A stretch of DNA of 64,000 nt. Origin: Alphaproteobacteria bacterium. GTDB lineage: Bacteria; Pseudomonadota; Alphaproteobacteria; Bin95. Location of the stretch: the NCBI GenBank assembly GCA_963665325.3, contig OZ224045.1:96001-160000 (forward strand), written 5' to 3'. Below, one piece after another: positions 711 through 46,788 of the stretch (its first letter is position 1; the number at the start of each line of letters is the position of its first letter). The translations under genes and the position numbers were made by a program. Under the pieces are notes generated by a model. That model made no database searches, had not been told where the DNA came from, and was given only the letters and a program-made list of their open reading frames with translations.

Positions 711-822
711 GCGCGCGTTTCGGGTCCAAGCCTGAAATCGCCGGCCCGGTCCCGGAAGAAGGTTGCGTCTGTGGTCTTCTGTGGTTTGTTCCACTATACC
801 AGAAAAAAATCCGCCAATGGGC

Positions 823-849
823 TTGATCCTGAAATTTCTGTGTTAGAAT
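823..849 (+). promoter_or_regulatory. Putative sigma70-type promoter (TTGATC ... extended -10 TGT-TAGAAT)
   Basis: TTGATC 823-828, TGn + TAGAAT 841-849 in an AT-rich patch; spacer only 15 nt; no convincing ORF downstream. Confidence 0.4.
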
Positions 850-891
850 GATGCAGAAGGAGGCGGCTTCCGGAGGCCGCCCCGCCTTCCA

Positions 892-918
892 CGCCGGCGC
901 CGGCGCCGGCGCCGGCGC
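892..918. repeat. (CGCCGG)x4.5 tandem hexamer
   Basis: cgccgg cgccgg cgccgg cgccgg cgc read directly. Confidence 0.9.
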
Positions 919-1316
919 AAAGAAATCCAATTGGAACCCACGGGAGACGTGCGCCTTGCATTTGCTTTGCGCGCGCAGGCGCAATCAGGCGCGCGAACCG
1001 CGCCGCCGCGAAACGCGCCCGCCCGCGCCCGTCCGCGATTGCGCGCGGAAATAGGGTTCCGCCGCAACGGGGCTGGCGGAAGGAAGACCGGAACGAAAGG
1101 GAACGAAACGGGATGAGGGCACGATGGTCGGACGCAGACAGACGCAGGCCTCGCGGGGGTGGGTGCTCATGACATTTTGCAGGAGGTTCCGCTGCTCGGG
1201 GAGCAGGCCGCCGGCGCGGAGGACAAAACGAAGACGGATCGAGAGGACAGACCCTTGCCGAAAGAACGGCTTCATGCCGGAAGAGACAACAGCTCATGCT
1301 CTATCCGTATGGGGAT

Positions 1317-40844: not shown

Positions 40845-41633
40845 TCAGATGCCCCTGATGTTCGGCGTGCGTCGTTCCCGCCAGGCGCTGTGGGCTTCTT
40901 CCTTGTCTTCGGTCAATTCCAGCGTCATGAACCGGTAAAGGTCAACGAGGGCGGCGTCCTTGAGGTTCGGGATGTCCATGCCGCGGTTGAGCGATTCCTT
41001 GGTGAGCCGGACGGCCAGCGGCGGCAGCGCGGCGACATGCTCGGCCACTTCCATCGCCTTGCCCATCAGCTCTTCATGCGGAACCAGCCACTGGGCAAGG
41101 CCGATGCGGTGCGCCTCTTCGCCGTCGAGCGGAAAGCCCATGGCAAGCCGCATGGCGAGGCCCTTGCCGACAAGCCGCGCCAGACGCACCGAGCCGCCAT
41201 AGGCGGGCAGGATACCGAGCGCCGTCTGCGGCAGGCGCCATTCCGCCCGGTCGCCGGCCACGACGAGGTCGCAGCAGAAGGTCAGGATGCAGCCGATCCC
41301 GATGGCGTAGCCGTTGACCGCGGCGACGATCGGCTTCGGGAAGTCCATGAAGACATCGAACGGAAAGCGCTCCCGCTTCGACAAATTCTTGACGAACTCG
41401 GCAACCGGCGGCATCGCATGAGTGTTCGGGTCCTTCAGGTTGGCCCCGGCGGAAAAGGCGCGCCCGTCCTCGTCGCCGGTCACCACCACCGCGCGTACGC
41501 TGTCATCGTCCGCCCATCGGGGAAAGCATTCGGCGATGCCGTCGTAGAAGTCCTGCCCCCAGGCGCTGCGGGCCTCCGGGCGGCTCAACGTCGCAAGTGC
41601 GACATGACCGTGTTGTTCGACGATAAAGGGCAT
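40845..41633 (-). CDS. Enoyl-CoA hydratase/isomerase family protein
   Basis: AFSAGANL, AAVNGYAIGIG, LPQTALGILP; ATG at 41633 with GAGGAG RBS. Confidence 0.9.
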   Translation of the reverse strand: MPFIVEQHGHVALATLSRPEARSAWGQDFYDGIAECFPRWADDDSVRAVVVTGDEDGRAFSAGANLKDPNTHAMPPVAEFVKNLSKRERFPFDVFMDFPKPIVAAVNGYAIGIGCILTFCCDLVVAGDRAEWRLPQTALGILPAYGGSVRLARLVGKGLAMRLAMGFPLDGEEAHRIGLAQWLVPHEELMGKAMEVAEHVAALPPLAVRLTKESLNRGMDIPNLKDAALVDLYRFMTLELTEDKEEAHSAWRERRTPNIRGI

Positions 41634-41769: not shown

Positions 41770-41802
41770 TTGACATTCCTCTCGTAAGTTCTATATATGT
41801 TC
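41770..41802 (+). promoter_or_regulatory. TTGACA promoter overlapped by an alphaproteobacterial LexA (SOS) box
   Basis: TTGACA 41770-41775; GTTC-TATATAT-GTTC 41788-41802 exactly fits GTTC-N7-GTTC and covers the -10 region. Confidence 0.75.
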
Positions 41803-41996
41803 TCATAAAGCCCCAACGGAGCGAAAGAGGCATGATCTGGACCTGACAGGCTATCGGAGCCGCGCAAGCCGCCTTTTCCTGACCTCCGCCGTGAACCGGC
41901 CGCTCCGCGGCGACAAGAGGCGAGGTCGGCCCGGCGGCCGGCTGTCGCGGTCTGCCTGACCCGCCGGAGGACCGGAAAATCGATCTCGGGTTGAAC

Positions 41997-42048
41997 GTTT
42001 ACGGAGGCCGCGTGGGCGCGGTTGTTTACGGAGGCCGCGCAGGCGCGG
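41997..42048. repeat. Tandem duplication GTTTACGGAGGCCGCG(nn)GGCGCGG, 27-bp period
   Basis: Copies begin at 41997 and 42024; 16-mer core identical. Confidence 0.85.
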
Positions 42049-42061
42049 CGCAGGAGAAGCG

Positions 42062-42496
42062 ATGGCGAGGGAATCGGCAGGCGGGCCTGCGGGCGCGCTT
42101 CGGCGGCCGGGGCAGGGCCGTCCGGTCGGCGAGGAGCTGCGAAGCCGGGCGGTGGCGGCGGTGTTGGAGGAGGGCATGAGCGCCTCCGCTGCGGCCCGGC
42201 GGTTCGGGATAGCGAGAACCAGCGTCTGCCGCTGGGTGAAGCGCTTTTGCGAGCACGGCCATGTGCGGCGCGAGCGCATGGGCGGCAGCGCCTCGCGGAT
42301 CGAGCCGGAAGGGGAGCGGATCCTTCGCATCCTCGAGGCGCGCCCGGCGATTTCCATGTACGGGCTGCGCGACGCGCTCGCCGCCGAGGGCCTATCGTTC
42401 CACGCGGCCACGGTGCAGAACTTCCTCAAGCGCCACGGACTGGAGCGCGAACGCCGCCTCGCCCGTCGCGGGCGGAAGCGGTGGACCGAACGATAG
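42062..42496 (+). CDS. IS630-transposase-like HTH protein without DDE domain
   Basis: ELRSRAVAAV..GMSASAAARRFGIARTSVCRWVKR and LRDALAAEG..TVQNFLKRHGL match the two HTHs of IS630 OrfA; AGGAG RBS; no catalytic ORF follows. Confidence 0.75.
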   Translation: MARESAGGPAGALRRPGQGRPVGEELRSRAVAAVLEEGMSASAAARRFGIARTSVCRWVKRFCEHGHVRRERMGGSASRIEPEGERILRILEARPAISMYGLRDALAAEGLSFHAATVQNFLKRHGLERERRLARRGRKRWTER

Positions 42497-42826: not shown

Positions 42827-43927
42827 TCAGTGGGGCGACCTCGCAGAGCGCAAGGTCAACGCCGTCCCGCCGTCCCGTTCCCCGATGAGGGACTCGAAGG
42901 GATACCCGGCGGCCCATGACGGGGTGTCGATCGTCCACGACAGGCGCCGGCCGTCTTCCGTGGGCTCCGAGACGACGTGGCCGCTGGCGACGGGCTCTTC
43001 AGGGTCTAGCAGGACGGAAAATCGGCTGGCCGCGGGCGGAGCCGGACCGGTTAGCGGCAGGGCCTCGTCCAACGATATGAAGAGGCGGTGCCCGCTCACT
43101 TCGTGGCGGTATCGTTCAAGGGCGCCCTCGGAATTCAGCTCGATCGTGCTGCGGTTCTGATAACCCGGCAGGTCCGCGACGAGAGCGATGCCTTCCGTCC
43201 GCGCCTTGACGTTGAAGGAGAGGCCGGCCCCATCGTCGCTGAGGCGTGTTTCGCCGGCCGCGAAGGACCACTGGCGGAAGGGAAAGACCACGATCTGAAT
43301 CCCGGCGCTGTAGGCCGCCATGAATCGATGCTTCCCCTCGGGGTCGTCTCCGGCGCGGAAGGAGAAGTCTTGACCACCAATTGCCACTTTGTTGCGTGCG
43401 GCCGTCGCGTTGCGCTCCCTGTGGAAGAGCAAGACCAAGAGATCGGCCGAGTGGCCGGATTGATCCGTCAGACCGGCACCGGCCTGTGTCAGCGGCACGT
43501 TTTCGGCATTGATTTCGAGCTCGACGAGGGCGCCCTCAAGGTCGGTGAACGACACAGACACGCTTTGTCCTCCCTCCGATCCGCCCGTGCGCCGATAGTC
43601 GATCTGCCGGTAGTGGAAGTCATCGACGCCTTTGGCGATTCGGCGATCGTCCATGAAGTGGTGCTGGCGCTTCGCGCCCTCGCGCTCGGTGAAGAAGACC
43701 CAGACGAGCCTGTATGGATTGGACGGCGTGTCGATGGACATGACCTCAACAGCTTCGTAGGTCGGATGGCGAGGAAGCCAGACATACCAATGATGGTCGA
43801 AGTAGTGGTGCTCGCTGACCAGGGGAACGGCGGGCGCCGCCTCGCCGCGGCCGCTGGTCGCGCAGGCCACGACGGCTAGCACCAGCACCGCGCCGACCAA
43901 CAGCCGTGAGAGGGATAGAGCAAGCAT
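42827..43927 (-). CDS. Hypothetical secreted protein / putative lipoprotein
   Basis: Long clean ORF with hydrophobic signal peptide and lipobox-like LAVVAC; no family recognised. Confidence 0.7.
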   Translation of the reverse strand: MLALSLSRLLVGAVLVLAVVACATSGRGEAAPAVPLVSEHHYFDHHWYVWLPRHPTYEAVEVMSIDTPSNPYRLVWVFFTEREGAKRQHHFMDDRRIAKGVDDFHYRQIDYRRTGGSEGGQSVSVSFTDLEGALVELEINAENVPLTQAGAGLTDQSGHSADLLVLLFHRERNATAARNKVAIGGQDFSFRAGDDPEGKHRFMAAYSAGIQIVVFPFRQWSFAAGETRLSDDGAGLSFNVKARTEGIALVADLPGYQNRSTIELNSEGALERYRHEVSGHRLFISLDEALPLTGPAPPAASRFSVLLDPEEPVASGHVVSEPTEDGRRLSWTIDTPSWAAGYPFESLIGERDGGTALTLRSARSPH

Positions 43928-44598
43928 TTTTCTGTCTCCCGAAGTTTCTTGGTCCTTGCACGGGCGCGTCATGTCCTGGGCCCGCTCGGCACTATTGGCA
44001 GTTGAACCAGGTAAGCCGCGCAGTGGTGTCCGGGTTGTCGAGTTGCTTCCGCGCCATCAGCGAGTAGGGAGAGTCCGGGAGCTCGTCGATCCGGTTCGCC
44101 CCAGGGGATTCGCTGTTGTCCCCGCGGAGCGCCGCCGCCATCGACACCAGGGCGCCCGCGGCGCGCCGTCCCAGCTCGTTGGGGAGCATCGAGAAATCTC
44201 AGTAGACCGTATCGCCAACGTCCGGCCCGGCCCGCACCGGCAGGTCGAACTCGAGCCCTTCGCTGACCGACATGCTGCATGTGCAGCCCGCATACGTCCT
44301 GTTCGGCCCCTCTTTGGTGGGCGGCGTCACAACAACAGCGCGTATGACTGCACCTCCGGCATGCCATCCGGAACACAGGCGAACGGGAAGTGCCGGCCCC
44401 GCCGCCTGACATTCCTGCCACTCCCCTCCAGCCACTAGCGAGCCAGGGCGGAAAAGAAAAATGCTGCTTGGATCAAGATCCATGCCGCAGCGGAATAACC
44501 GTTCAATTCCTCGTCATGGCCGCTGTCGAAGGCGACGGGCCGAGCGTTGGCCCGGGCAGCTCACTATCGCGAGAGCGGACCTAACCCCCGGGGCCTGC

Positions 44599-46273: not shown

Positions 46274-46370
46274 ATGCCCTCTTCCCGTCATGCCCGGACT
46301 TGTTCCGGGCATCTCTCTCGGGCCGGTCGCAGCGGCGGAAATGGATGGCCGGAACAGGTCCGGCCATGAC
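46274..46370. repeat. REPIN-like unit 1: inverted pair of CGTC-tagged hairpins
   Basis: CGTC-ATGCCCGGA-CTTGT-TCCGGGCAT (46286-46312) ... ATGGCCGGA-ACAGG-TCCGGCCAT-GAC (46345-46370). Confidence 0.93.
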
Positions 46371-46500
46371 CAAAGGGAAGGGGACGGAAGACGCCGCGTG
46401 CCTCCGGAACCTCCGCCAGACTCCCGTTCGGCATCGCCCGATAGCCAGCCCGGACAGCAATGGGCTTGTTCCGGGCATCCACAGGTTGCAGCATGGCCGC

Positions 46501-46788
46501 ATGAGCGGGGGCTGGGTCTATATCATGACCAATCGACCCTACGGCACGCTCTATCTCGGCGTGACCGGCAATATCGCGCGCCGGGCTTGGGAACACCGCG
46601 AAGGCGTTAGTGAAGGGTTCACCAGGCGGTACGGTCTCAAGCGGCTCGTCTTCGCGGAACGCCACGAAGACATCCGTTCCGCCATCCAGCGGGAAAAGAC
46701 CATGAAGCACTGGCCGCGCGCATGGAAGATCAACCTCATCCTCCGGCGAAACCCCGATTGGAACGACCTTTACGAGACCCTGCAGTAA
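46501..46788 (+). CDS. Small stand-alone GIY-YIG nuclease (Ssn-like)
   Basis: WVYIMTN..GTLYLGVT..IARRAWEH, AIQREKTMK, WPRAWKINLI..NPDW.DL; 95 aa from ATG 46501. Confidence 0.92.
   Translation: MSGGWVYIMTNRPYGTLYLGVTGNIARRAWEHREGVSEGFTRRYGLKRLVFAERHEDIRSAIQREKTMKHWPRAWKINLILRRNPDWNDLYETLQ

Follow-up and report, generated by a model that had tools for sequence, protein, structure and literature searches.

In eukaryotes the domestication of DNA-binding domains from transposases is well documented, with PAX, CENP-B and SETMAR as examples. IS1 InsA and the OrfA proteins of the IS3 family are end binders without a catalytic domain that inhibit their own IS, and they are made inside an intact IS, by frameshift control. 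PICI and SaPI elements use their own TerS, which acts with a pac site and a helper TerL, and tisB/istR, dinQ/agrB and symE/symR are toxin genes of the SOS response that have a long leader and a partner RNA. The gene described here, and the family of cassettes to which it belongs, resembles PAX, SETMAR and CENP-B (PDB 1k78, 6pax, 7s03 and 1hlv) in that a transposase DNA-binding domain is selected after the loss of catalysis, but the cassettes are bacterial, multi-copy and fast-turning, carry LexA boxes and changing recognition helices, and have a non-coding module attached. They are like InsA and OrfA in encoding catalytic-domain-less end binders that could repress transposition; in contrast to those inhibitors, they are separate genes under what is predicted to be host-type damage control, with no fixed parent IS (one genome, G009, holds 6 copies and no DDE_3 match). 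With SOS toxin genes and type III toxin-antitoxin systems they have in common a LexA box, a long leader and, in a sister clade, a convergent promoter-bearing non-coding unit, but neither a toxin family match nor a repeat array was found, and the sense orientation of the module in the main clade rules out antisense pairing as a common mechanism. As to PICI and SaPI elements, the cassette protein gave no TerS match; TerS-like genes occur only in a second mini-element family, considered below. A literature search found no such bacterial, LexA-boxed family of dozens of copies, although supplementary tables of LexA sites could hold such genes.

The locus lies in a 64-kb window (the whole stretch of DNA analysed, 64,000 nt), and its parts are summarized in Table 1. 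The first-pass annotation had listed a TTGACA hexamer, a perfect GTTC-N7-GTTC, an AGGAG ribosome-binding site and an intact 144-aa ORF with its stop codon, all of which are present where it placed them. It had also described a GC-rich leader of ~250 nt; the length is borne out by the 259 nt between box and start codon, but at 68% GC compared to 67-68% for the genome the composition is not distinctive. Absent from that annotation were the start-stop mini-ORF, the second motif of the leader and the paralogues. Comparison of paralogues places the left edge of the duplicated unit just upstream of the TTGACA hexamer, which adjoins it, and paralogue similarity begins ~60-75 nt 5' of a start-stop mini-ORF (motif 1). 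Each of two 25-nt repeats ahead of the gene bears a GCCGCG..CGCGG hairpin, and repeat copy number differs among orthologues. Elsewhere in the window, a 381-aa ORF with a signal-peptide-like start (42827-43972, minus strand) is without a Pfam, NCBIfam or PADLOC match and was not seen at the corresponding site of G011 or G013. A GIY-YIG nuclease gene (46300-46788, plus strand) has similar palindromic repeats on both sides, and repeats of this type also flank many cassettes.

Table 1. Features of the locus (window coordinates) and of the GTA-like cluster of the source genome
Feature	Position	Strand	Remarks
Divergent enoyl-CoA hydratase gene	40845..41633	-	outside the cassette; marker of the orthologous site elsewhere
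-35 hexamer TTGACA	41770..41775	+	read from the sequence
LexA box GTTC-N7-GTTC, GTTCTATATATGTTC	41788..41802	+	over the -10 region
Likely -10 element TATATA	41792-41797		16-nt spacer to TTGACA
Motif 1, start-stop mini-ORF ATG ATC TGG ACC TGA (M-I-W-T-stop)	41832..41846	+	
Variable spacer of the module	41847..41913	+	short GC hairpins; block-swapped between G013 paralogues
Motif 2 (family consensus ACRGGRRAGGTGCGCGCGCC)	41914..41935	+	weak variant at the locus, 14.3 bits
Two tandem 25-nt repeats	41997-42021, 42024-42048 (span 41997..42048)	+	
Ribosome-binding site AGGAG	42052..42056	+	
144-aa paired-type double-HTH ORF from IS630 OrfA	42062..42496	+	C-terminus RRLARRGRKRWTER-TAG
HTH1 recognition helix codons (IARTSVCRW)	42209..42235	+	hypervariable among paralogues
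GTA-like cluster	L403:6590-19000 and L405:765-2670 (G000:C4, about 512.6-525.7 kb)		

The encoded protein comprises HTH1 (residues 24-65), HTH2 (residues 81-125) and a basic C-terminal helix (residues 129-139). An AlphaFold model of the 144 residues (mean pLDDT 70, pTM 0.39) shows two three-helix units plus a basic final helix, and its top PDB matches are paired domains, namely PAX paired domains, SETMAR and Mos1, in agreement with the double HTH that had been read from the letters. Profile searches matched HTH models alone, with no likeness to a terminase and no match to a PADLOC or toxin family. Residues 29-134 align to positions 3-117 of the 299 in NCBIfam model NF033545 (IS630 transposase), whose IS630 relatives here we take to be ISRm2011-2-like frameshifted elements. 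No longer relative was found, which is weak evidence. In a tree with quick search supports and a midpoint root, long-leader ('core') copies and a sister clade of short-leader copies (the 'short' clade) form a single group with one of the genus's IS630 lineages (SH-aLRT 99), apart from other IS630. Several short-clade proteins reach 190-313 aa with extra tandem HTH units (L139, L171, L230, L232 and G000:C1:1072342).

The catalytic domain is missing throughout the core clade. With at least 1326 nt searched downstream of each core locus, in frame or after a frameshift, DDE was found at 0 of 125, and the same test flagged 20 intact IS630 loci; its absence, noted at first for the locus, extends to the core loci. 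Likewise, there is no slippery A-run at the end of this gene or of any of the 121 core genes inspected, compared to A5-A8 in 7 of 7 IS630 checked. The accompanying claim that IS630 ends are lacking fared less well: neither a right end nor a TA duplication was found, but positions 41826-41846 resemble the repeat at the left end of elements of the closest IS630 lineage. Motif 1 matches that repeat, TAGAGCATGATCTGA, at 8.8-15 bits (genome fraction ≤3e-5), and three other IS630 ends score negative against it. Motif 1 is probably a relic of an IS630 end that now serves as mini-ORF, operator or both.

The alphaproteobacterial LexA consensus, GTTC-N7-GTTC / GAAC-N7-GAAC, agrees with PMC6473078. The genome's own lexA has a perfect GAAC-N7-GAAC and recA a box with one mismatch. 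Six further regions with perfect boxes in an AT-rich context were inspected: one box each leads to mmcB, to an operon with an IMS-family polymerase and to a phage-like cluster, and the other three to no known SOS gene. Within the window the number of perfect boxes, 1 found versus 1.79 expected, is at chance level, so that the box at the locus carries weight because of its position and conservation rather than its rarity. Boxes with at most one mismatch are present in 66 of 112 core promoters (3.6% of shuffles), and in 62 of these the box sits between -42 and -49 relative to the mini-ORF. The other 46 promoters have at least two mismatches; in 16 of them a G[T/G]AT-N7-GAAC in reversed form lies close to the start site, and 18 have a TGTTC half-site. 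The short clade has the box in 20 of 22 loci. The LexA box is thereby retained in two clades and at two positions. LexA binding and damage induction of the cassettes are predicted from these boxes.

The leader contains two conserved motifs. The first, [A/G]TGA[C/T]N TG[A/G], occurs in 112 of 125 core loci, ~28 nt past the likely start site, and always reads as a tiny ORF: 76 of the 112 stop at codon 3, and the remaining 36, which have TGG at codon 3, all stop at codon 4 or 5, one with TAG. These 36 forms are not 36 independent events, because many are a 6-nt tandem duplication. The ribosome site of the mini-ORF is weak (-5.0 kcal/mol; main ORF, -9.0; leader controls, -3.8). Fusion of the mini-ORF to the main ORF by read-through or frameshifting was considered and is ruled out by the frames (49/32/31) and distances (97-423 nt). 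The second motif is found in 111 of 126 modules, 58-115 nt after motif 1 (2.4% in shuffles). One IS (copies 99.7% identical, IS110-like by eye) is inserted at motif 2 in two different paralogues of one genome (L090 and L099, G005), and in one copy of the source genome an IS21 separates promoter from gene (L382, G000:C1:1485000-1489200).

The module can be uncoupled from its usual place. In the short clade it lies 3' of the gene with its own promoter-like site, convergent at 12 and tandem at 3 of 22 loci by pattern search. A profile built from core loci alone finds it 3' of 12 of the 22 (11 convergent, 1 tandem), with controls of 0/22 upstream regions, 0/220 shuffles and 0/112 core downstream regions. 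Five strong module matches (L265, L266, L267, L268 and L269), selected for the lack of a neighbouring gene match, are orphans, consisting of an intact promoter and module with no HTH gene in the stretch inspected. In G013, three clade-A paralogues (L211, L212 and L215) hold a clade-B stretch, 94-100% alike, which starts at motif 1 and ends at motif 2. Judged from these arrangements, the leader is a separable, promoter-bearing module that is tied to the gene in three ways.

The 5.58-Mb source genome has 10 core copies, 3 short-leader copies and 6 intact IS630, and core copies are present in 13 of the 17 genomes of the genus at 1-37 per genome. The loci analysed are the best 30 in each of five genomes (of 57, 41, 42, 51 and 43 matches), together with all copies of the source genome and 15 further loci. 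Outside the genus, 26 of 250 alphaproteobacterial genomes have a protein match, all far weaker, and the best loci in 25 of these 26 carry DDE and are plain IS630. The module model gave one weak match (E 6.6e-4) in 120 non-genus genomes, which the HMM did not confirm. Among 45 pattern matches in metagenomes one is a true cassette, and viral contigs returned no close relative, only 10 weak single-HTH matches. Across the genomes searched, the cassette family is restricted to one genus.

Within a genome, similarity between paralogues runs from just 5' of the -35 box to about the stop codon, giving a unit of about 700 bp and one gene; the closest unit-length paralogues are 88-92% alike. The unit has no integrase, att sites or replication module, and no mobilising enzyme for it was identified. 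Both flanks are adjacent in the source genome for 43 of 135 foreign loci. By eye, those among them that are listed are clean intergenic insertions, often where other genomes hold other cargo, and neither a TA duplication nor paired ends were seen among them. At the start of the repeat TA is outside the six commonest dinucleotides, which cover 111 of the 112 listed, and GCTCTA lies within 600 nt downstream in 5 of 125 core loci. Beside the enoyl-CoA hydratase gene, 7 genomes have an orthologous gene and three (G003, G009 and G016) have none; the G012 site keeps the module, followed by an insertion and another paralogue. In G016 (L285) a CATGAC element end and a transposase-like ORF occupy this place, and in G009 (L286) other mobile DNA, so that the site is an insertion hot spot. 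Elsewhere in G012, two HTH genes form direct repeats of 363-368 bp (98-99%) around 3-4-kb islands (L282:626-5253 and L283:494-3904); cassette copies therefore also serve as integration points. The ORFs of these islands resemble restriction-modification genes by reading of the sequence.

Membership in known element classes was weighed against these data. In contrast to IS630, whose OrfA they resemble in the paired-type double HTH and in motif 1, the cassettes lack DDE, the A6-8 slippery run, paired ends and a TA duplication, have a LexA promoter inside the copied unit, and are 50-90% alike and inherited at fixed sites, whereas IS copies are nearly identical. Against a MITE assignment stand the lack of both ends, of a target duplication and of near-identical copies, and the 6 copies in G009, which has no DDE_3 match. 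The cassettes thus appear to act like a domesticated transposase DNA-binding domain and to fall outside both IS630 and MITEs. They are nevertheless not the stable single-copy genes of a domesticated regulator. The suggestion of one such regulator at this locus was right as to transposase descent and selection but not as to number, since the locus is a member of a fast-turning, multi-copy family with 0-37 copies per genome.

We then asked how the protein evolves. Compared with its 6 orthologues, the gene at the locus has a dN/dS of 0.19-0.33, and the ratio is below 1 in 64 of the 65 pairs of orthologues, as the first-pass annotation had anticipated; copies inherited vertically at fixed sites are by these ratios subject to purifying selection. 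Because of its IS630 origin, the loss of DDE, the conserved LexA box and this selection, the locus is not plain IS debris. On the same sequence evidence it is very probable that the cassettes form a DDE-less, LexA-boxed and selected family with an attached module. The two recognition helices depart from the rest of the protein: pN/pS is 1.43 and 1.34 there, compared to 0.46 elsewhere (50 disjoint close pairs), although the positions were picked after their variability had been seen and a GC3 of 0.90 inflates all the values, so that the excess may reflect relaxed constraint. The recognition helix differs even among orthologues of the locus gene. The covariation of helix residues with DNA of the same cassette, measured over 98 loci, is below that of other variable residues, an indication that the targets lie elsewhere. 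Recognition of the cassette by its own helices was rejected for this lack of covariation.

We tentatively favor the view that the family is a panel of DNA binders, induced in the SOS response and unable to cut, whose role is to block mobile DNA, a reading that we hold to be possible, short of probable. By sequence comparison, a cassette of ~700 bp, made up of a LexA-boxed sigma-70 promoter, the non-coding module and a DDE-less IS630 paired domain, has been copied to many intergenic sites in the genus and is afterwards inherited and kept. Following DNA damage, LexA would be cleaved and all 1-37 variants transcribed together, each presumably yielding a small non-cutting DNA-binding protein with its own recognition helices. 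The panel would act in trans on mobile DNA, occupying element ends or promoters when damage wakes them, much as end binders of the OrfA and InsA type do with their own IS. The module would be the cis handle of the cassette, the mini-ORF and motif 2 gating read-through or translation, and may also mark the unit for copying by the same route that spreads small-terminase mini-elements. The terminal repeats of IS630 have a variable interior across the class and are thus a plausible moving target for such a panel. The loss of DDE, the conserved LexA boxes, the selection at fixed sites and the variable recognition helices also speak for this reading. Against it, no target was found, and 46 of 112 core promoters have two or more mismatches to the box. 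Copy number shows no clear link to the load of IS630-type DDE (cassette copies versus DDE_3 matches are 6 versus 0 in G009, 0 versus 30 in G016 and 37 versus 32 in G005), which weakens a narrow anti-IS630 version. Moreover, since part of the module is common to a second mini-element family and copies turn over, selection at the level of the element rivals domestication by the host.

That the cassettes are ordinary host regulators, domesticated SOS-induced factors for host genes such as those of growth arrest or repair, comparable to the PAX and CENP-B domains of eukaryotes, is unlikely, though it is the best placed of the alternatives. Purifying selection at fixed loci and the paired-domain fold fit this explanation, as does the match of motif 1 to a terminal repeat, the expected binding site of the ancestral protein; the module would then be an attenuating leader or an operator for autoregulation. 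Set against it are the range of 0-37 copies with frequent gain and loss inside one genus, a recognition helix that is not constant even between orthologues, and a module that is also found downstream of genes and alone. Neither a common downstream regulon motif nor an enriched target motif was found. A dispersed ATGACCTGA regulon was examined as a candidate and rejected, 27 sites in the genome (9 of them in modules) versus 17 expected being at chance once the modules are set aside.

The mobile-DNA panel is not the only reading in which the module has a role beyond its own gene. The second mini-element family that carries part of it consists of small-terminase elements with phased CATGAC repeats, 65 near-full leaders of which are present in the source genome. 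One such leader lies in the window (803-1026). A motif-2 matrix learnt solely from HTH loci of other genomes gave 30 matches of at least 18 bits in the source genome versus 5.5 in shuffles, and these fall in 9 HTH cassettes, 15 CATGAC elements and 6 sites that are neither. Motif 2 is present in 62 of the 65 CATGAC leaders, and a LexA box with at most one mismatch in only 8. The CATGAC leader folds into a consensus, yet shows few two-sided changes. CATGAC elements are multi-copy in 14 of the 17 genus genomes, including 13 of 13 with HTH cassettes, kin that are not independent. The two families are alike in a left-edge promoter, a leader hairpin with motif 2, the lack of a target duplication and the set of genomes they occupy; CATGAC elements differ in their Terminase_2 HTH protein, the phased repeats at the far end and a longer conserved leader.

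Two perfect LexA boxes of the source genome lead into a cluster of head, tail and terminase genes: an S24 repressor, portal, scaffold-like gene, capsid, two tail tubes and large terminase. Its portal is found in 16 of the 17 genus genomes and the cluster is syntenic in 9 of 9 examined. A LexA box precedes the portal in 8 of 8, and dN/dS is 0.14-0.41 over capsid, portal and TerL. Close relatives of its large terminase are labelled Skermanella, Azospirillum and Magnetospirillum. On account of this pattern of genes, synteny, box and selection we term the cluster GTA-like. A Bartonella-type GTA is described in 10.1101/2022.06.10.494566 and 10.1101/2024.11.20.624540. A helper of the RcGTA type was considered and rejected, with no HK97 capsid match in the 17 genus genomes. 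A separate prophage-like region has its own large terminase and portal (L404:1-14500; G000:C1, about 476-490.5 kb).

Under an explanation that we rate slightly below that of host regulators, and likewise unlikely, cassettes and mini-elements are co-induced with the GTA-like cluster and selfishly steer the terminase to their own site, spreading between cells by biased transduction with occasional landing at new sites. Motif 2 is common to the HTH cassettes and the CATGAC elements, all 5 Terminase_2 matches of the source genome are in CATGAC elements and none in the cluster, and the cluster itself is conserved, LexA-boxed and under purifying selection. Known GTA small terminases are without a DNA-binding domain according to PMC11841831, which leaves a gap that such elements could fill. 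However, the HTH protein has no likeness to a terminase, no self-site covaries with its helices, and it has no close relative on viral contigs; moreover, the cluster is present in G003 and G014, which have neither element family, and its TerL is interrupted by an IS in the source assembly. A more specific proposal, that the two unrelated families of chromosomal mini-elements, from below 1 kb to 1.5 kb in size, supply the missing DNA-binding head of the GTA terminase and so bias packaging to their own sites, is more doubtful still. If true, the cassettes would be part of a gene-drive-like GTA parasite that lacks an integrase, a transposase and a replicon and employs a co-opted transposase end-binding domain as packaging adaptor.

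Equally doubtful, in our judgement, is an RNA-protein unit in which the module would act as a ~130-nt RNA and bind or guide the HTH protein that belongs to it, in the manner of a type III antitoxin or a guide. As a cognate RNA, the module would travel with the gene in any orientation, and its position 3' of 12 of the 22 sister-clade genes, with its own promoter-like site, and the stop at codon 4 or 5 in all 36 TGG variants are consistent with this. The first-pass annotation had raised an RNA-plus-protein unit, of which the separable, promoter-bearing module in three arrangements was confirmed, but conserved RNA structure was not found. Using alignments based on sequence only, the folding z-score was 0.75 for the leader of the locus and averaged -0.1 over 52 modules, the covariation term was about 0, and 45 modules yielded no consensus pairs. 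The two motifs of the module were not found to pair with each other, nor did any Rfam family match. Moreover, the G013 swap between protein clades and the 5 orphan modules argue against strict cognate pairs. As to transcripts, one RNA-library run holds a 163-nt contig on 41817-41979 and a related contig that bridges leader and ORF; both are of low depth and without strand, the runs giving neither condition nor expression level, and as evidence of transcription these two contigs from one run are a weak hint. Three further runs (X1, X2 and X4, of which X1 and X2 look like one data set) have contigs on the neighbouring gene only.

Explanations of the family's job other than those discussed here are together improbable. 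Least probable of all is neutral or near-neutral IS debris spread by duplication and gene conversion, which would suit the polymorphic insertions at hot spots that hold other elements elsewhere, the broken and partial copies and the real conversion between paralogues, but which appears largely refuted by a LexA box kept in two clades and two positions, by the preserved frame of the mini-ORF and by dN/dS well below 1 at fixed loci, comparable to that of the conserved TerL (0.41, same method).

New to this family are the separable module with its swaps, the ties of the module to the terminase elements and to an IS end, and the cluster with LexA boxes. Should the panel block mobile DNA, as we tentatively propose, it would represent a damage-induced defence of a new type and, at the same time, a natural collection of small binders with paired domains. 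Through the shared leader the cassettes are linked to another element family as well as to the conserved GTA-like cluster with its SOS boxes, and this link makes the spread of transposase-less units a testable question.
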